Below are positions 2,591-19,601 of a stretch of 20,000 nt of DNA, piece after piece. The DNA comes from an uncultured virus (IMG/VR IMGVR_UViG_3300032038_008756) (Duplodnaviria; Heunggongvirae; Uroviricota; Caudoviricetes). The notes below the pieces were generated by a model. The model was not told where the DNA came from, searched no databases, and was given only the letters and a program-made list of their open reading frames with translations. Position numbers and translations under genes: made by a program. The DNA is taken from the IMG/VR virus record IMGVR_UViG_3300032038_008756; one strand, written 5' to 3'. The stretch's first letter is position 1, and each line of letters starts with the position of its first letter.

Positions 2591-2642
2591 AAAGATAGAC
2601 GTAAGTAGTTTAAATAATTACTTATATCTATCTATTTTTTTT
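2591..2642. terminator. bidirectional intrinsic terminator between convergent genes
   Basis: AGATAGACGTAAGTAGTT-TAAAT-AATTACTTATATCTATCT inverted repeat, with an A-run on the left and a T-run on the right. Confidence 0.8.
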
Positions 2643-3355
2643 TAATATTCAATATATTTATACTTATCTCTGCTATTAAAAATTTTTTCTTCTGAAATAG
2701 ACTTTACAATAGCTTTCAAATCATCTCCAATATGCATCCATGTTTTATTAATATCATTCCACTGTCTAATCATAACACACTTTTCTGTGCAATTTATTAC
2801 ACTAAGCTTTAAGTATATCATATTATCAGCTTCACCATTTCCACATCCACAAGTTATAGGATATATCTTAGAGTACACGGGAGAATTATTATAAGTTTCT
2901 TCGCCAATAATAGTGACCCTATTATTTGTAAAGAAAGAATCCCTGTCTGGAACATACCCATTCATATAGATTGGAAATTCCTCTTTTTCTGTAGAGGTTA
3001 GTCCTTCAAGGTGGTTTGGAATTGAGATTGTCTCTTTAATATAAATATAGATCTTTTGTTTAAGGTCTTTTTCTAACTGCTCTAAGTAAAAAACTTCTTT
3101 ATTTTTATAGAAACAGCTTAAAGCAGTACTTAAGTCATCAAGAGTCTTTAATGCATATTCAGGAATTAAAAGATAATCTTCTCTTTGATTTTCTAATATA
3201 GAATAATATCTTCGATTAAATCGAGTATAAACTACTACTGTATAGGATTTATCATACCTTTCTATATACGCCTTTGTATTACTATTATATATAGATATTA
3301 TAAAATCCTTTCTATCCTTATTATAATCTTTTAAAATGTCATCAAACATAATCAA
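2642..3355 (-). CDS. hypothetical protein with FIEYD-like C-terminus
   Basis: 237-aa ORF; ATGA overlap with upstream gene; has CGC; ends DKYKYIEY*. Confidence 0.85.
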   Translation of the reverse strand: MIMFDDILKDYNKDRKDFIISIYNSNTKAYIERYDKSYTVVVYTRFNRRYYSILENQREDYLLIPEYALKTLDDLSTALSCFYKNKEVFYLEQLEKDLKQKIYIYIKETISIPNHLEGLTSTEKEEFPIYMNGYVPDRDSFFTNNRVTIIGEETYNNSPVYSKIYPITCGCGNGEADNMIYLKLSVINCTEKCVMIRQWNDINKTWMHIGDDLKAIVKSISEEKIFNSRDKYKYIEY

Positions 3356-4278
3356 GGATAAAGTTGATATATCATTACATCATCTTCTTGTAAGTTTTCG
3401 ATTGTCTTTTTCCAAATATCCATTTGTTGTTTATAAAATTCTTCTGAAAATTTATCTTTATTATAATAAGTGTACGCTGGAACTAACATTTCTCTTATTA
3501 ATTCTTTTTGGGATTCTGTTGCTGTATCATATGTAAAGAAGGATTTAAGTTGAACTTCTTTATTCCCATGTAAAATTCCGGTAAAGTATCCCATAGCTGT
3601 TTTAAGAATCATTTGAGAAAGTAGTTCTTGTTCTGTATATTTATGTATAGGAATTTCCGATTTAGTAGTAGATGCCCGTTGTTCTTTTTTATACATAGCC
3701 CAAACCTCTTCAGCACTTGGAATATAATCTTCGGGTAATTCTTCTACTACTATTTCTTTTTTCTTAGCTTCGTCTTCCTTTTCTTTGATCCAATTATACG
3801 GAAAGTATACTGAAATTTCTGATCTATCAAATATTCTAGAAATTACTTCATCTGCAGACATAGAACTATCAATATCAGTGCATCTTTCTCTAATTCGTTT
3901 CAGTACATGTGAGTTGACCGTTGTAATATAATGACCAACCCTACCGTCAACTCTATACTTTAGGCCTCTAAAAATTACATAGAAGCTAGAACCATTCGAA
4001 GTAATTCCTTTACAGTGAATATGTGTATCATTAAGTGGCTTTTCTGGTTGTCCCTTCATTCCAGTTTTTATAAACCACTTATTAAAAGTTTTAGAAGAGG
4101 TTATAGTAACTGAACTATAAATCCAATCTTCAATAATTTTCCCCGGCACATTCTTTCTCTTACTTAGATATGGTTTTCTAAGTTTTTCTCTTTCTCTTTT
4201 AATTATCTTCTTGACAAAATCTAGATCAATACTAAGATCTCTGTACAAGTCATTTCCTGTTAATTTTTCTGTTATCAT
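3352..4278 (-). CDS. hypothetical protein
   Basis: 308-aa ORF starting 7 nt downstream of a CCTTATATATG motif; contains SHVLKRIRER. Confidence 0.85.
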   Translation of the reverse strand: MITEKLTGNDLYRDLSIDLDFVKKIIKREREKLRKPYLSKRKNVPGKIIEDWIYSSVTITSSKTFNKWFIKTGMKGQPEKPLNDTHIHCKGITSNGSSFYVIFRGLKYRVDGRVGHYITTVNSHVLKRIRERCTDIDSSMSADEVISRIFDRSEISVYFPYNWIKEKEDEAKKKEIVVEELPEDYIPSAEEVWAMYKKEQRASTTKSEIPIHKYTEQELLSQMILKTAMGYFTGILHGNKEVQLKSFFTYDTATESQKELIREMLVPAYTYYNKDKFSEEFYKQQMDIWKKTIENLQEDDVMIYQLYP

Positions 4279-4285
4279 AATTTTT

Positions 4286-4296
4286 CATATATAAGG
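4286..4296 (-). promoter_or_regulatory. repeated promoter-like motif CCTTATATATG
   Basis: Minus strand reads AAAGCCTTATATATG-AAAAATT-ATG(4278). Confidence 0.7.
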
Positions 4297-4300
4297 CTTT

Positions 4301-4462
4301 AAAGAAAAAAAAGAAAAAGGGAAGGGCGCGATATGCCCTTTATTGTCCTGACTGTGGGCGTTAATAGTTGCGTAGTCCTTTCTTAAGATTTAAATGAGTT
4401 ATATTAGGCGCGTGAACTGCCGCTTACTCATACTACGGCATGTGCCGCTTCCCTTCTTTCAC
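4301..4462 (-). ncRNA. candidate structured small RNA (about 160 nt), unknown family
   Basis: Locally GC-rich and without a long ORF; lies between a motif copy (4460-4470) and a hairpin plus U-tract; 5' AAGAAGGGAAG is complementary to 3' CTTCCCTTTTT. Confidence 0.55.
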
Positions 4463-4470
4463 ATATAAGG
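4460..4470 (-). promoter_or_regulatory. repeated promoter-like motif CCTTATATGTG
   Basis: Minus strand reads TGAAAACCTTATATGTGAAAGAAG; faces the candidate RNA and is divergent from the copy at 4496. Confidence 0.65.
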
Positions 4471-4495
4471 TTTTCAATACCTTTTCAGCCGTAAC

Positions 4496-4506
4496 CCTTA
4501 TATATG
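4496..4506 (+). promoter_or_regulatory. repeated promoter-like motif CCTTATATATG
   Basis: CCTTATATATGTTATGAT, 18 nt identical to 15411-15428; the ATG of nadE follows 2 nt after the motif. Confidence 0.7.
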
Positions 4507-8344: not shown

Positions 8345-8355
8345 CCTTATATATG
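8345..8355 (+). promoter_or_regulatory. repeated promoter-like motif CCTTATATATG
   Basis: TTTTCCTTATATATGTGAAA; the last G is the first base of the GTG start of 8355..8543. Confidence 0.7.
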
Positions 8356-9288: not shown

Positions 9289-9299
9289 CCTTATAATTG
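9289..9299 (+). promoter_or_regulatory. promoter-like motif variant CCTTATAATTG
   Basis: Followed after 2 nt by ATG 9302, the same spacing as at 4496 and 15411. Confidence 0.6.
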
Positions 9300-11441: not shown

Positions 11442-11452
11442 CCTTATATATG
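11442..11452 (+). promoter_or_regulatory. repeated promoter-like motif CCTTATATATG
   Basis: TGAAATCCTTATATATG; the TGA is the stop codon of the BRCT gene. Confidence 0.7.
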
Positions 11453-11560
11453 AATATAAATGACAGGTCAGCGGATCTGTCTTACTCAATTAATTACGAT
11501 AAATCGGTTAATTATTAATTAGTAAAGGTAGGGCGTAGTGATTACGGTCTATCTTTTTTT
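11453..11560 (+). ncRNA. candidate small RNA (about 110 nt, three hairpins) or micro-ORF transcript
   Basis: GACAGGTC-AGCG-GATCTGTC hairpin, an AT-rich hairpin, then AAAGGTAGGGCGTA-GTGAT-TACGGTCTATCTTT plus T-run. Confidence 0.5.
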
Positions 11561-11567
11561 CTTATGT

Positions 11568-11610
11568 AAAAAAAATAAAGAGAGCTTAGGTTATTTACCT
11601 TTACTCTCTT
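11568..11610 (-). terminator. intrinsic terminator of the minus-strand unit
   Basis: AAGAGAG..AGGT/ACCT..CTCTCTT inverted repeat with an A8 tract on the left (U-tract on minus). Confidence 0.65.
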
Positions 11611-11616
11611 ATTATT

Positions 11617-15395: not shown

Positions 15396-15421
15396 CACAA
15401 ATAAGGATTTCCTTATATATG
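15396..15421. promoter_or_regulatory. back-to-back divergent motif pair (CCTTATTTGTG minus, CCTTATATATG plus)
   Basis: CACAAATAAGG-ATTT-CCTTATATATG fills almost the entire 29-nt gap between two divergent ATGs. Confidence 0.75.
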
Positions 15422-15810: not shown

Positions 15811-16207
15811 GCTTTTAAAAGAAATGGTTCAAGACTCTAATCAGGCTGAATCATATGCTTGGTTAAAGAAAGACAGTAAAGGATATTTCCTAGAATGGGT
15901 GTTAAAGGATGGAGTTCCAAAAGGTAATAGAATAATTAATCTAAACCGATATAAAAAGTCCACTCTTGATGAATATATAGGGGATATCTTTAAAGTGGAT
16001 ATGATTAATTGTAGACGTAAGGATTGTTGGCCAGGTCATCCAAAATCAGGCTGTGAAGCACAAACTGATACGTGCTGTTGTTGGAGCTTAACAAAAAGGG
16101 TCGGACAAATCGACCAATTAGTCGAACAGCTTCAAGTTCCGCTTAAATTAAAAGATGTAAAGCATTTGTTATATAAATATGGGGTTGATTACCTAGAGGA
16201 AGAATAA
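15791..16207 (+). CDS. Cys-rich hypothetical protein
   Basis: Start reassigned to ATG 15791 (MNETDF); contains CRRKDCWPGHPKSGC...TCCCW. Confidence 0.8.
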   Translation: MNETDFKLLKEMVQDSNQAESYAWLKKDSKGYFLEWVLKDGVPKGNRIINLNRYKKSTLDEYIGDIFKVDMINCRRKDCWPGHPKSGCEAQTDTCCCWSLTKRVGQIDQLVEQLQVPLKLKDVKHLLYKYGVDYLEEE

Positions 16208-16209
16208 AT

Positions 16210-16249
16210 AAAGAAGGGATAAGATTTAATTCTTATCTCCTCTTTGTTT
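16210..16249. terminator. bidirectional terminator between convergent genes
   Basis: AAAGAAGGGATAAGA-TTTAAT-TCTTATCTCCTCTTT. Confidence 0.75.
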
Positions 16250-16285
16250 CGTTATTCTCTATTAAAGAAGTCAGTCATTCAAACA

Positions 16286-16813
16286 TCAACAATTACTCCC
16301 GATAATTGTTCTGTTAAAACTATTTTTTGTAGTGACAGGAACTTCAATGTATGTCCTCCTTTCAGTCTTTCTACGAACTGTTGTAGAAATTACCTCAATA
16401 TTAGGTATTTTTAACAGAATGTTTCGATAGTATTTGTCATAAAGGCCAAATCTATGGAGCATACCTTCTAACTCCTTATCAGTTTTTGGCGCAAGGGCTA
16501 ATAATGTCTTATTGACTGGAAGATATTTAAGAGCGGTTTCATAAATTCTCTTGATAAATTCTTTTGAATCAGCTGGTAAATTATCTTCGCCTTCTAGGAT
16601 TTCAGCGACAAGAATTTTCATCTTATCGTTGTTAGTTTCGTTCACGCTTACTGTTTTACTTGATCTTTTAAGTGTTCTGTCTTTTTCTCTTTTTACCTCC
16701 TTTTCATTCATATTCTTATCACCACCGAGCACTTCATAAAGACTCAAGATTCCAAGAGATATTACTGTTGTTCCTATAAATATCTCTGCAAGATTCAACT
16801 TACTATTTTCCAT
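16286..16813 (-). CDS. hypothetical protein with N-terminal membrane anchor
   Basis: ATG 16813 (MENSK) preferred over TTG 16867; IFIGTTVISLGILSLY hydrophobic segment. Confidence 0.75.
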   Translation of the reverse strand: MENSKLNLAEIFIGTTVISLGILSLYEVLGGDKNMNEKEVKREKDRTLKRSSKTVSVNETNNDKMKILVAEILEGEDNLPADSKEFIKRIYETALKYLPVNKTLLALAPKTDKELEGMLHRFGLYDKYYRNILLKIPNIEVISTTVRRKTERRTYIEVPVTTKNSFNRTIIGSNC

Positions 16814-16929
16814 AATTAATAGAGATTTTGGGTTCTTTGTTATTTTTATAACTTTAACTCTTCTCAATTTTGTTAAACCTCTTTATATATAACATCTTTA
16901 TCATAATACTATTTTGTTATTTTTGACCA

Positions 16930-17156
16930 TGTCTATTAAGATTATATAATCTCATAAGAGATTACTTTCTATAAGTACTCTAGTATAGACTCTATAGGAT
17001 AGAATTTATACCTTCGCGGAGTTTGGCTTCACAACTTTAGTGCTACCACTAGACCACTATGCCACGTTGAGGCACTCCGATATATAGTGGAAAAGAAGAA
17101 ACCAGTTGCAACATCTACCTTATATATGTATGTGTTGTACTTAATTTCTTCTTCAC
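16930..17156 (-). ncRNA. candidate structured RNA or long structured leader
   Basis: Starts at the motif 17154-17164; 70-nt hairpin (17087-17156), CGGAGT/ACTCCG-closed multibranch domain (17017-17079) and further small hairpins. The 3' end is uncertain. Confidence 0.5.
17118..17128 (+). promoter_or_regulatory. motif copy CCTTATATATG, antisense to flanking genes
   Basis: Perfect copy on plus, convergent with the copy at 17154. Confidence 0.4.
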
Positions 17157-17164
17157 ATATAAGG
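17154..17164 (-). promoter_or_regulatory. repeated promoter-like motif CCTTATATGTG
   Basis: Minus strand reads TGAAATCCTTATATGTGAAGAAG; the TGA is the stop of truncated grpE. Confidence 0.7.
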
Positions 17165-17167
17165 ATT

Positions 17168-17431
17168 TCAGGGTTTTCCCAGAATCCTTTTAAATTTTTC
17201 CAATATTAAACCAAGACCACTAGGATCTCCAGCTTTCATTGCTCTTTCAAGATCATCTAGAACTGGTAATACAGACTTAATAACATCCTCACCAGCATAT
17301 TTCTTTAGATCTGAAAGTTCTTTTGCACTGCGAATCTTATAATTTTCAAATTCACGTTTGGTCTGTGCTATCCTCTCCTTCAAGATTTTAATCTCTTCTT
17401 GATACTCTGCCAAGCTCTTATAATCATCCAT
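17168..17431 (-). CDS. grpE: GrpE nucleotide exchange factor, helical part only (truncated)
   Basis: EFENYKIRSAKE...KYAGEDVIKSVLPVLDDLERA...GLGLILEKFKRIL; the C-terminal beta domain is absent. Confidence 0.8.
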   Translation of the reverse strand: MDDYKSLAEYQEEIKILKERIAQTKREFENYKIRSAKELSDLKKYAGEDVIKSVLPVLDDLERAMKAGDPSGLGLILEKFKRILGKP

Positions 17432-18123
17432 GGTAAATTATTATAATCACTAAATCCGTATAACCCACAACTAAAGAATTCATGAACCTCTATAATAGTT
17501 GTTTCAAAAAATGATTCATGTGAATAAACTGCAAAGTCTATTGAGTAAGCTTCACAATTCATTATCCCATTTTTAACTTTTTCTCGTATTACTTCGGGAT
17601 TCGGAAATCTTAATGGATCTCCTGAATAATTTTGAACTCCTAGTATTTGCTTGTTTCTTATAAATACTCTCCATTCAGATTCAATAGTAAGAGGTCGTCG
17701 TACTTGATATATTATATTCGGATTTATTTTATCAGGATCCAAAATTCCATTTTCTGGAGCTTTAAATTCTACCGTTGACTTAATATAATATTTTCCTTTC
17801 CTACTAACTAAATCTTTTCCTAAAACTTCCTCTACACCAGCCCAACTTTTAAATGGAACTGGAACGTTTAATGGCTTTATTACTTTATGGTCTCCTAGAA
17901 AAATATCTATAAAAGTAAAAACATACTCTAATGTTCCTACTGGGATATAGTCCCTCCAATTTTCATCTTTTAAAGTTCTTAGTTCTTCAAGGCCTACAAA
18001 TTCAAAATCAAATTGAGATTGGCCATTATTCTTCCAAGTATGATATTCGAAAGACCTTAGAAGCTCAAAAACAAAATCTAATGTTACTTCACCGTTTATT
18101 GTTTGTAATAAAAATTTTATCAT
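17380..18123 (-). CDS. ATP-grasp domain protein, DUF4343/R2K-like
   Basis: IPVGTLEYV, YYIKS, SEWRVFI, AYSIDFAV, IIEVHEFFSCGLYG. Confidence 0.8.
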   Translation of the reverse strand: MIKFLLQTINGEVTLDFVFELLRSFEYHTWKNNGQSQFDFEFVGLEELRTLKDENWRDYIPVGTLEYVFTFIDIFLGDHKVIKPLNVPVPFKSWAGVEEVLGKDLVSRKGKYYIKSTVEFKAPENGILDPDKINPNIIYQVRRPLTIESEWRVFIRNKQILGVQNYSGDPLRFPNPEVIREKVKNGIMNCEAYSIDFAVYSHESFFETTIIEVHEFFSCGLYGFSDYNNLPWMIIRAWQSIKKRLKS

Positions 18124-18188
18124 AATCTATTTAGTTTTTACTAAGGTATCAGGAATATTCTCAATACCAACCTTCAAAATTGCTTTCT

Positions 18189-19601
18189 TTATAATACTCC
18201 AATTTCTCTTGCTTTTTGATATAATAATTCTTTAAGAGGTTCTGGTTCATTTGGAACAGTATTATCTAAGACAGCATCCTTTAAAGCCTGTTTTAAGATA
18301 CCAACTTCACGAGAAGGTCTTAGATTGAGAAGCTCCATAATCTGATTTCCATCAATACAAGGTTGAAAAAGTCGTTTAAAGTCTCGTTGTTTTAAATCTT
18401 CGATCATTTCTCTAACCTTTTTAAAGTTATTTAGGAAATGCTGTTTTTTCTCTAAGTTTCTGGTAGTAAGATCACATTCACATAGTGTCATAAGATCATC
18501 TATATAATCTCCTGCATCACTACATAATCTTCTTACAGCACTATCTGTAACCTGATCATTGGCAATAATTTGAGGTCTCATATGAAGTTCTACCAATGTT
18601 TGAACATATTTCATCTCTTCTCCTAAAGGTTGTTTCATTCTAGCGAAGAGTTTTGGTATCATCCTAGCACTCATATGTTCATGATCATAAAATGTCCAAC
18701 CCTTTACAGGATCATGCCTTTTTGTAGGTTCTTTGCCAATATCGTGAAGCAATGCCGCCCATCTTATCCACAACCCATCAGATCTTTTGGCCATATTATC
18801 TAAAACGTTAACACTATGCCAAAAATTATTTTTGTGGAAATCAACATAATCTTCACCAACCTTATCATTTGTATCCAGTACTGTCAGTTCAGGAATAATC
18901 TGCTGTAATAATCCAGCCTCTTTTAGAAGAACAAATCCTCTCTTAGGATCTGAACTAAGAATAATCTTATTAAGTTCATCCGTAATTCTTTCCTGCACGA
19001 TTATCTTTAAACGTTGTGAATTTTGACATACACCTTGCCAAGTAATCTGATCAATATCAAAACCAAACCTAGTTGCAAACCTAATACATCTAAGCATGCG
19101 AAGAGGATCATCTGAAAAAGTAATCGTGGGATCAGTTGGAGTTCTAATTATACCATTCTTTAGGTCTTCTATGCCATTAAAAGGATCAACTAATTCTCCA
19201 AATCTGCTCTTGTTTAAACAAATAGCCATAGCATTAATTGTAAAGTCTCTTCTAAGCTGATCATCTTCTAGAGTTCCATTTTCTACAATAGGATTTCTAG
19301 ACCCTCTTTCATATGATTCTTTCCTTGCTCCAACAAACTCTACCTCAATGCCATTATAATTAACCATTGCTGTTCCATAAGATTGATAAATACTAAGTTT
19401 ACCACCAACTCTTTTATGAAATGCTTTAGCCATCTGTATCCCAGATCCAACTACTACAATATCAATGTCATGACTAGGATAACCTAAGATTAAGTCTCTA
19501 ACGTATCCACCTATTACATAACATTCAATTCCAAGTTGATCCGCTATATCAGAAATATCTTTAAAGACTTTTTGTTTCTCTAATTCACTAAATATTTTCA
19601 T
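18189..19601 (-). CDS. cca: tRNA nucleotidyltransferase (CCA-adding/poly(A) polymerase family) with HD domain
   Basis: GGYVRD..DIDI, EFVGARKESY, RRDFTINAMA, DDPLRMLR, LLHDIGK; resembles the Bacteroidota-type enzyme. Confidence 0.92.
   Translation of the reverse strand: MKIFSELEKQKVFKDISDIADQLGIECYVIGGYVRDLILGYPSHDIDIVVVGSGIQMAKAFHKRVGGKLSIYQSYGTAMVNYNGIEVEFVGARKESYERGSRNPIVENGTLEDDQLRRDFTINAMAICLNKSRFGELVDPFNGIEDLKNGIIRTPTDPTITFSDDPLRMLRCIRFATRFGFDIDQITWQGVCQNSQRLKIIVQERITDELNKIILSSDPKRGFVLLKEAGLLQQIIPELTVLDTNDKVGEDYVDFHKNNFWHSVNVLDNMAKRSDGLWIRWAALLHDIGKEPTKRHDPVKGWTFYDHEHMSARMIPKLFARMKQPLGEEMKYVQTLVELHMRPQIIANDQVTDSAVRRLCSDAGDYIDDLMTLCECDLTTRNLEKKQHFLNNFKKVREMIEDLKQRDFKRLFQPCIDGNQIMELLNLRPSREVGILKQALKDAVLDNTVPNEPEPLKELLYQKAREIGVL

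Follow-up and report, generated by a model that had tools for sequence, protein, structure and literature searches.

A 74-nt element with the fold and core letters of an HDV-like ribozyme (HDV, hepatitis delta virus) was found on the minus strand of a 20-kb stretch of DNA from an uncultured virus (IMG/VR record IMGVR_UViG_3300032038_008756). This whole stretch is referred to here as the window; all coordinates are positions in it, and the element is read on its minus strand. The element, at 17090-17017, lies in the largest gene-free gap of the window and upstream of a membrane-protein gene. We consider it to be a variant HDV-like ribozyme in an mRNA leader, predicted to cleave and so to remove a promoter-proximal hairpin, and put the probability of this reading at roughly 60%. 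It is preferred because the helices and core letters of the family are present, because compensatory changes were found in P1, P2 and a hairpin on the 3′ side, because the element is conserved above the level of the flanking genes, and because its linkage to this gene and to the promoter-like motif that precedes it recurs in a distant relative. Two relatives were used for comparison: L015, a close relative locus that is 93-94% identical over 6.6 kb, and G001, a distantly related 207-kb IMG/VR phage contig with 31.9% G+C.

The layout published for theta and minimal HDV-like ribozymes, P1-J1/2-P2-P3-T-P1.1-NCGY-P3′-P1′-P1.1′-L4-J4/2-P2′ (Kienbeck et al. 2024, PMC10879173), was used as a guide, and the element was segmented accordingly as CCACTAT-ATAT-CGGAGT-GCC-T-CA-ACGT-GGC-ATAGTGG-TC-(25 nt)-CCAA-ACTCCG. 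P1 (7 bp, CCACUAU/AUAGUGG) is formed between 17090-17084 and 17060-17054, and P2 (6 bp, CGGAGU/ACUCCG), whose pairing crosses that of P1, between 17079-17074 and 17022-17017. P3 (3 bp, GCC/GGC, 17073-17071 and 17063-17061) lies between the 5′ strand of P2 and the 3′ strand of P1, giving the nested double pseudoknot of the family. All pairs of P1, P2 and P3 are Watson-Crick, the P2/P3 and P3/P1′ junctions are of zero nt, and J1/2 consists of the 4 nt ATAT (17083-17080). L3 (UCAACGU, 17070-17064) carries the hallmark U in its first position and CG in its fifth and sixth, without variation among the three sequences; a descriptor of HDV-like ribozymes fixes this U, C and G, with the U and G forming a reverse wobble (PMC6326823). 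The 3′ strand of P1 is followed by J1/4 (UC, 17053-17052), a 25-nt P4/L4 insert (UAGUGGUAGCACUAAAGUUGUGAAG, 17051-17027) and J4/2 (17026-17023). The last of these reads CCAA, or CAA(A) if taken one base further on, which makes 17026 or 17025 the candidate catalytic C; it is C-led, as is typical of the family (CRRA), and invariant in G001. The insert contains a tRNA D-loop-like UAGUGGUAG.

The complementarities listed in an earlier interpretation made from the letters without database searches (the sequence-only reading) were all located on the minus strand, each in its place. Two of them, the helix CGGAGT/ACTCCG and the hairpin GCC-TCAACGT-GGC (17073-17061), correspond to P2 and P3-L3 of the ribozyme. 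The letters of a further proposed structure, TAGTG..CTA-GTGG-TAG-CACTA, are present, but the TAGTG/CACTA helix has one uncompensated change in G001, and the TAGTG arm instead forms the 3′ strand of P1 by pairing with the upstream CCACTAT. The suggested CAAC/GTTG pseudoknot involves letters that are invariant and therefore uninformative; the knot that covaries is that of P1 and P2 instead. The exact fold proposed for 17012-17079 had an energy of -14.6 kcal/mol, compared with -21.0 kcal/mol for the minimum free energy (MFE) structure. This 68-nt segment was also the GC-richest of its length in the 20 kb (52.9% against a mean of 31.3%, standard deviation 5.6), and the runners-up included a motif-fed non-coding stretch near 4311-4473. 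The sequence-only reading had treated 295 nt of the gap as one structured unit. This stretch folded better than expected on the minus strand (z -3.18; one of 200 shuffles equally good) and its structured parts are real, but it proved to be a chain of parts that differ in conservation.

Comparisons with published rows refer here to the first 127 of 7,705 and the first 71 of 6,037 rows of the tables of Kienbeck et al. (PMC10879173). A relaxed descriptor, which included every feature of those rows but demanded neither G at +1 nor a paired P1.1, matched a single locus in a scan of both strands of the window, namely 17090-17017; the strict descriptor, in which G1 and P1.1 were demanded, had no match in the window. 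Among 87 other loci (399 kb) the relaxed descriptor found the L015 ortholog and one weak AT-rich match (the same sequence in L026 and L027). Over the full 636 kb of the uncultured phage LR756504.1 it had no match, and its one match in the full 207 kb of G001 was the homologue. The pseudoknot topology alone was non-significant: with 7, 6 and 3 Watson-Crick pairs in P1, P2 and P3 and loose spacings, it occurred at three loci of the window. As such a topology is not rare in AT-rich DNA, weight was put on the core letters and on covariation.

Alignment of the 74-nt ribozyme with L015 showed no differences. The block around it (16931-17122) differed at one of its 192 nt, compared with 162 of 1866 third codon positions (8.7%), while in the flanks of the gap 9 of 117 and 5 of 45 positions differed. 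No identical run in the whole L015 alignment is longer than that of this block, and a 146-nt run in the gene for the CCA-adding enzyme is nearly as long. G001 was retrieved from IMG/VR with a pattern consisting of P3-L3-P3′, seven free letters and UC, which occurred at 63 places, one of which passed the descriptor. A second IMG/VR pattern, based on the P4 insert, returned this contig only. When 16200-18200 of the window was compared with G001 by blastn, only 17097-16966 (83%) and 54 nt of the membrane-protein gene aligned. P1 of G001 is CCACUGU/GCAGUGG, which represents one compensatory and one wobble change, and P2 is CCGAAU/AUUCGG, with two compensatory changes; P3, L3, UC, the 25-nt insert and CCAA are identical to those of the window. 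All eight substitutions in the 74 nt fall in P1, P2 or J1/2. The invariance of the insert between phages whose neighbouring protein is 38% identical suggests, from sequence comparison, a sequence-specific role beyond that of a spacer.

Covariation over the window, L015 and G001, one of the checks proposed with the sequence-only reading, was assessed for 34 pairs. The paired cells amounted to 97.1%, and six pairs were changed on both sides: one in P1, two in P2 and three in the hairpin on the 3′ side. One of 500 shuffles was as good, and slid controls gave 0-1 such pairs. These data also bear on a DNA-level control region, that is, a set of regulator-binding palindromes ahead of a strongly expressed gene, with no RNA function. 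Several inverted repeats are present in the gap, the plus strand of the 295-nt stretch folds too (z -2.56), and the block lies just upstream of the starts of the RNA contigs over the membrane-protein gene. The compensatory changes, however, keep the crossing long-range pairings of P1 and P2, which would be meaningless for a DNA operator, and several of the kept pairs are G-U on the minus strand only. As a DNA operator would also leave the match to the ribozyme core letters unexplained, we consider this explanation very improbable.

Further searches for relatives were negative. Four single proteins and one alignment searched in viral contigs yielded none, and no match was found for a 24-mer in viral contigs or for a 20-mer or the membrane-protein alignment in genome contigs. 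Comparison of the gap by blastn with three Lak genomes and LR756504.1 gave nothing, nhmmer and blastn of the block against the 87 loci gave L015 only, and a distant-mode search of a phage collection gave one unrelated 80-nt match.

The ribozyme is preceded by a promoter-like motif, CCTTATATGTG (17164-17154; AATCCTTATATGTG including its flank), which is followed by a purine run as had been described before. It resembles the Bacteroidota -7 box, the consensus of which is TAnnTTTG (PMC7366714). Allowing one mismatch, the window contains ten copies; allowing two, it contains 14, where 7.0 would be expected. At six genes CCTTATAT[A/G]TG was found 1-7 nt upstream of the start codon (4286-4296 and 15396-15406 on the minus strand; 4496-4506, 8345-8355, 9289-9299 and 15411-15421 on the plus strand). 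We take the motif as a putative phage promoter giving nearly leaderless messages; in Bacteroides such messages are rare, with 5′ untranslated regions shorter than 10 nt making up 3.7% (PMC7366714). G001 contains 28 copies in its 207 kb, including AATCCTTATTAGTG at the matching place upstream of the element, and LR756504.1 contains none. In L015 the copy at 17164 reads CCTTATACATG.

Three copies of the motif (4470 on the minus strand, 11442 on the plus strand and 17164 on the minus strand) face non-coding DNA. The sequence-only reading had assigned the gap the same 5′ design as an RNA at 4301-4462. The motif AATCCTTATAT[G/A]TGAA is indeed common to 4470 (minus) and 11439 (plus), but since the motif also precedes the start codons of six genes it marks promoters generally. 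The motif-fed non-coding stretch at 4296-4470 (minus) is GC-rich and includes two of the five 68-nt segments highest in G+C, and pairing is possible between its purine-rich 5′ end and a pyrimidine run preceding a U tract. The one at 11442-11616 (plus) has a folding z of -4.6 and ends as a hairpin followed by U7. The ribozyme descriptor fits neither of them.

Between the promoter-like motif and the ribozyme lies a leader hairpin, AAGAAGAAAUUA...UGGUUUCUUCUU followed by UU (17091-17153), which ends 0-2 nt before the ribozyme. The pairing of AAGAAGAAATTA with TGGTTTCTTCTT (12 pairs, including two G-U, around CAACA/TGTTG) was confirmed. The MFE of this hairpin was -17.1 kcal/mol (z -4.56; none of 200 shuffles as good). 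In G001 a hairpin of unrelated sequence occupies the same place (z -3.48; one of 200 shuffles), and in L015 the changes, a 2-nt deletion and one substitution, are confined to the apical loop. This loop also carries a plus-strand copy of the motif (17118-17128) that faces the grpE-like gene and is a possible antisense start; the copy is altered in L015 (CCTTACATATG).

Directly behind the ribozyme is a 14-pair hairpin with the loop CCU (16982-17012). When compared with G001, three of its pairs were changed on both sides and two departed only by unpaired cells, with 92.9% of cells paired. It is followed by a conserved unpaired stretch, AGAGUACUUA... (16966-16981), whose AGAGTACTT is the same in all three sequences. 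The hairpin TAATCTC-TTAT-GAGATTA (7 bp, 16964-16947, then TATAATC), which the sequence-only reading had included in its structure, is present and identical in L015 but absent from G001, and is therefore outside the conserved core; it may act locally as a terminator or belong to a proximal promoter. The conserved block has TTAATAGACATG (16928-16939; TTTAATAGACATG in G001) at its 3′ edge, and near-identity with L015 stops at 16931. The remainder of the leader of the membrane-protein message (16814-16927) is variable; the nine differences from L015 noted above, in the 117 nt of 16814-16930, are like those at third codon positions.

The membrane-protein gene (16286-16813, minus strand) encodes 175 aa with one N-terminal hydrophobic helix, and its product matched no Pfam or PHROG family. 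A terminator-like hairpin was found at 16216-16239. In P0098, a relative from a database, similarity to the protein is confined to the first ~100 residues, after which an unrelated hydrophobic sequence follows; it is named a sensor kinase by one source and may be chimeric or frameshifted. A homologue of the membrane protein is encoded downstream of the element in G001 (38% identity, E 2e-23). The layout common to the window and G001 is thus the promoter-like motif, the leader hairpin, the ribozyme, the 14-pair hairpin, AGAGUACUU, UUAAUAGACAUG and the membrane-protein gene. The upstream neighbour of the element in G001 is an unrelated gene on the opposite strand. The element is therefore associated with the gene downstream rather than with grpE, and in G001 the transcript that carries it must start in that intergenic region. 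The sequence-only reading had proposed a novel non-coding RNA, ribozyme-like element or regulatory leader; a ribozyme-type RNA that leads into the membrane-protein gene agrees in kind with two of these three options, but the class itself, HDV-like or theta-like, is already known.

The start of transcription, the cleavage, its site and its purpose, as we infer them, would be as follows. A transcript would start at the promoter-like motif (17164-17154), so that its first ~60 nt form the hairpin 17153-17091. The RNA would then cut itself at the 5′ edge of the ribozyme, before C17090 with the 7-bp P1 or before A17088 in a 5-bp register; self-cleavage in the HDV-like family is Mg2+-dependent and takes place at the first nucleotide of P1. 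This would release the leader hairpin and leave a 5′-OH RNA that begins with the ribozyme and the 14-bp hairpin (17012-16982) and runs toward ATG 16813. The 5′-OH product could represent the membrane-protein message in a longer form or else an independent small RNA, and the purpose of the cut may accordingly be to provide a defined, protected 5′ end for the downstream RNA or to produce that small RNA.

The RNA-library evidence (X5, X16 and X17, from two studies) consists of contigs, which show neither RNA ends nor levels. The ribozyme region occurs in an RNA library: a 151-nt contig of X5, a length that may simply be that of one read, covers 17079-16929. The contigs over the membrane-protein gene extend from 16240-16264 up to 16884, 16912 and 16921; the X5 contig is a separate one (16921-16240), the X16 contig reaches no further than 16912 and the X17 contig no further than 16884. 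Over 17080-17412 none of the three runs has a contig, and over 16913-17568 X16 and X17 have none, which is not evidence of absence. Contig depths over the membrane-protein gene were 12.4, 80.3 and 10.2, compared with ~2.5-3 elsewhere, values that cannot rank expression. The gene was assembled as a single contig in three metatranscriptome runs, two of which were very small (~16-21 million letters); this hints at a strongly represented message, which contigs cannot prove.

The conserved block and the contigs could alternatively be explained by a stand-alone small RNA of ~160-220 nt, extending from the motif promoter to ~16930, with the membrane-protein gene being merely a neighbour that has its own start. 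The conserved block stops at 16931, the contigs of the two studies begin or end within 16884-16929 with none bridging this interval, and the motif copies at 4470 (minus) and 11442 (plus) would also fire into structured or GC-rich non-coding DNA. The element and the gene are nevertheless linked in G001 although the upstream gene has been replaced, the 7-bp hairpin at which such an RNA would end is missing from G001, and contigs cannot show where RNAs end. We consider a separate small RNA possible but somewhat unlikely.

Several points weigh against a cleaving ribozyme in the leader of the membrane-protein message. The +1 nucleotide is not G; it is C (C-G, with the 7-bp P1) or A (A-U, with a 5-bp P1). 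P1.1 does not have two pairs, as CA opposite UC gives one A-U and C·C. In the alternative register, with the 5-bp P1 and A at +1, the canonical U-GG follows and P1.1 becomes C-G plus A·G. The C-G first pair and the one-pair P1.1 are both conserved in G001. The published descriptor mentioned above for L3 also demands that the +1 nucleotide be a G whose partner is U or C, and that P1.1 consist of two C-G pairs (PMC6326823). In 150 dinucleotide shuffles of the window the relaxed descriptor had five matching loci, and the 192-nt block, shuffled 3000 times, yielded no match; these figures are optimistic because the demands for G1 and P1.1 were dropped after the candidate had been seen. The pattern that retrieved G001 itself fixed P3-L3 and UC, and the comparison draws on just two independent sequences, L015 being near-identical to the window. 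The promoter-like motif at 17154-17164 has two changes in L015. Furthermore, no RNA contig bridges the ribozyme and the membrane-protein message, and the main message may begin at a proximal start site; a start or processing site may lie near the conserved UUAAUAGACAUG. Finally, no Rfam 15 family was matched at gathering score anywhere in the window by covariance models, which are blind to pseudoknots.

The departures at the cut site, a C-G instead of G-Y pair and a P1.1 of one pair, would also be expected of a ribozyme-derived fold that does not cut and is conserved as a structured RNA, serving for example as a regulatory leader, as a site for protein binding or as a cap-like knot that protects the 5′ end. 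The invariance of the P4 insert despite the divergence of the neighbouring protein points the same way. The letters used in catalysis are nevertheless kept: the U, C and G of L3, the C-led J4/2 and the 4-nt J1/2 spacer. The CPEB3 ribozyme, an active natural member of the family, likewise has one G-C and a U-U in P1.1 (PMC4836649), and the wording of another source allows a P1.1 of 'one or two base-pairs' (PMC4908430). A fold without cutting therefore appears rather unlikely to us. A more specific reading is also conceivable, which we hold tentatively and at clearly less than even odds: the element may represent an active, undescribed subclass with C-G in place of the G-U wobble at the cut site, a single A-U in P1.1 and an invariant 25-nt insert with UAGUGGUAG, serving giant rumen phages as a natural device that processes or insulates the 5′ leader of a strongly expressed membrane-protein gene. 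Published descriptors that demand a +1 G and a two-pair P1.1 would then miss all of this subclass.

Rfam matches within 16700-17300 were at chance level only (E 2.7-8.1), and there were none at E up to 10 on the 121 nt of 16965-17085. No Rfam CRISPR-DR family was matched, despite a likeness of stretches bounded by GUUG...CAAC to CRISPR repeats. A degenerate tRNA or tRNA-like gene at 16980-17064 was considered in view of a cloverleaf with a canonical-looking D loop (AGTGGTA) that ARAGORN returned with lowered thresholds. The program's calls at these thresholds numbered 28 'genes' for the window and 721 for shuffled sequence totalling 400 kb, and at default thresholds it called nothing in the window. 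The 121 nt gave no match to RF00005 at E up to 10, and the 20-mer of the 'D arm' occurred in none of 185,579 species genomes. Judged with these tools, the probability of such a gene is negligible.

The gap was confirmed as the largest gene-free one of the window. In L015, which is 94% identical, an indel at TTG 16867 shows that the next gene really begins at ATG 16813; the true extent of the gap is therefore 16814-17167 (354 nt). On its other side is a grpE-like open reading frame (ORF) (17168-17431, minus strand; 87 aa) that corresponds to the N-terminal coiled-coil half and has the same length in 94%-identical relatives (P0001, L015). It matches positions 19-83 of the 165 of the GrpE profile, the gap begins exactly at the truncation, and full-length genes are present in Lak phages and LR756504.1, as would be expected if the gap were the decayed 3′ half of a truncated gene; coding under another genetic code was considered as well. 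A tblastn search with three full-length GrpE proteins, however, matched the N-terminal half only, anywhere in the window. Five open segments of the gap showed no Pfam family at E up to 10, and reading TAG as Q or TGA as W opened no long frame; a small protein was rejected along with recoding. Conservation of the block exceeds that of third codon positions, and the adjacent gene is a different one in G001. Decayed coding sequence, which the sequence-only reading had named as an outcome that would refute it, thus found no support in the grpE search, Pfam, recoding or conservation, and there is next to no chance that the gap is of this kind. Changes in the grpE-like ORF by codon position were 3/88, 2/88 and 13/88; as they are concentrated at third positions, the ORF encodes a short protein that is being maintained by selection and is no recent pseudogene.

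The G+C content of the window is ~31%, and short ORFs are densely packed over its 20 kb. Its genes include those for a glutamine-dependent NAD synthetase, an R2K ATP-grasp protein and a BRCT protein, as well as a CCA-adding tRNA nucleotidyltransferase with an HD domain (18189-19601). The nearest phage relatives of the grpE-like product are those of Prevotella Lak megaphages and of LR756504.1 (33-41% identity), and near-identical DNA was found in runs labelled bovine gut metagenome. Our reading is that the window belongs to a giant phage whose host is a rumen bacterium. Six adjacent ORFs (3-2590 on the plus strand and 2642-3355 on the minus strand) have a common C-terminal motif, (R/K)(F/Y)(I/V)E(Y/F)(D/E), and appear to be a paralogous family. 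L015 carries two additional genes (3058-4004 of that locus) between those for the CCA-adding enzyme and the ATP-grasp protein, without a counterpart in the window; judged by eye only, candidate identities are a phosphopantetheine adenylyltransferase-like protein for one and an HD-domain-protein-like product for the other.

Among described ribozymes, the theta and minimal HDV-like units (Kienbeck et al. 2024, PMC10879173) have the same order of helices as the element in the window. In some of the published rows compared, P3-L3-P3′ of phage members is GCC-U-CC-ACGU-GGC, 12 of the 13 letters of which are shared by GCC-U-CA-ACGU-GGC of the window. CCAA in J4/2 also occurs in those rows (CNRA in the theta rows), as do the zero-nt P2/P3 and P3/P1′ junctions. 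In contrast, +1 is C in the window and G in all 127 + 71 rows, for which the published search had demanded G. The insert is 25 nt, compared with an L4 of 5-8 nt in the theta rows and of up to 17 nt in the initial list, and thus does not conform to the absence of P4 by which theta ribozymes are defined. P1.1 with one standard pair and J1/2 of 4 nt are further differences from theta. Theta cleavage takes place within 5 nt of the 3′ end of a tRNA, whereas a hairpin lies upstream of the element in the window, with no tRNA at default thresholds. Judged from the rows listed, the element would escape the descriptor of Kienbeck et al.

The same source gives 526 occurrences without a tRNA, which are mostly non-coding and in the sense of the nearest gene (PMC10879173); the element in the window, too, is non-coding and in the sense of the next gene. 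Approximately 90% of the hosts given there are Bacteroidota, and tRNA nucleotidyltransferase genes are 250-fold enriched in the carrier phages (PMC10879173). The window, as a gut/rumen phage with a Bacteroidota-type promoter motif, is like the theta carriers, gut Caudoviricetes (PMC10879173), in this respect. With HDV and CPEB3 the element shares the nested double pseudoknot, the 3-bp P3, an L3 of the form U...CG and a C-led J4/2 of 4 nt, and it also has a P4 domain, a P1-P2 spacer and, as in CPEB3, a weak P1.1 (PMC6326823, PMC4836649, PMC4908430). Unlike these ribozymes it has no G at +1, the pair in P1.1 is A-U and not C-G, and the P4 region is not an obvious single helix (PMC6326823, PMC4836649, PMC4908430). 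The CCA-adding enzyme gene 1.1 kb upstream of the element fits the enrichment in theta carriers, which proves nothing.

Ruminski and colleagues reportedly described, in 2011, HDV-like ribozymes at the 5′ ends of the RNAs of non-long-terminal-repeat (non-LTR) retrotransposons. The RiboJ insulator is an engineered ribozyme with a following hairpin, in which cutting defines the 5′ end of the message. The element resembles both as a leader ribozyme that would remove promoter-proximal RNA; those systems are eukaryotic or synthetic, and the link to a message 5′ end is putative here.

Phage HDV-like ribozymes have so far mainly been described as small theta units that free the 3′ ends of tRNAs. Here the same core lies in the leader of a giant-phage protein gene, combined with a P4-type insert and altered pairs beside the cut site. 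If the element does not cut, a ribozyme fold would have been retained for another use. If it does cut, the G-U wobble and a two-pair P1.1 would not be strictly needed, and searches that fix them would undercount the family; the element would then also be a natural ribozyme that defines the 5′ end of a message.

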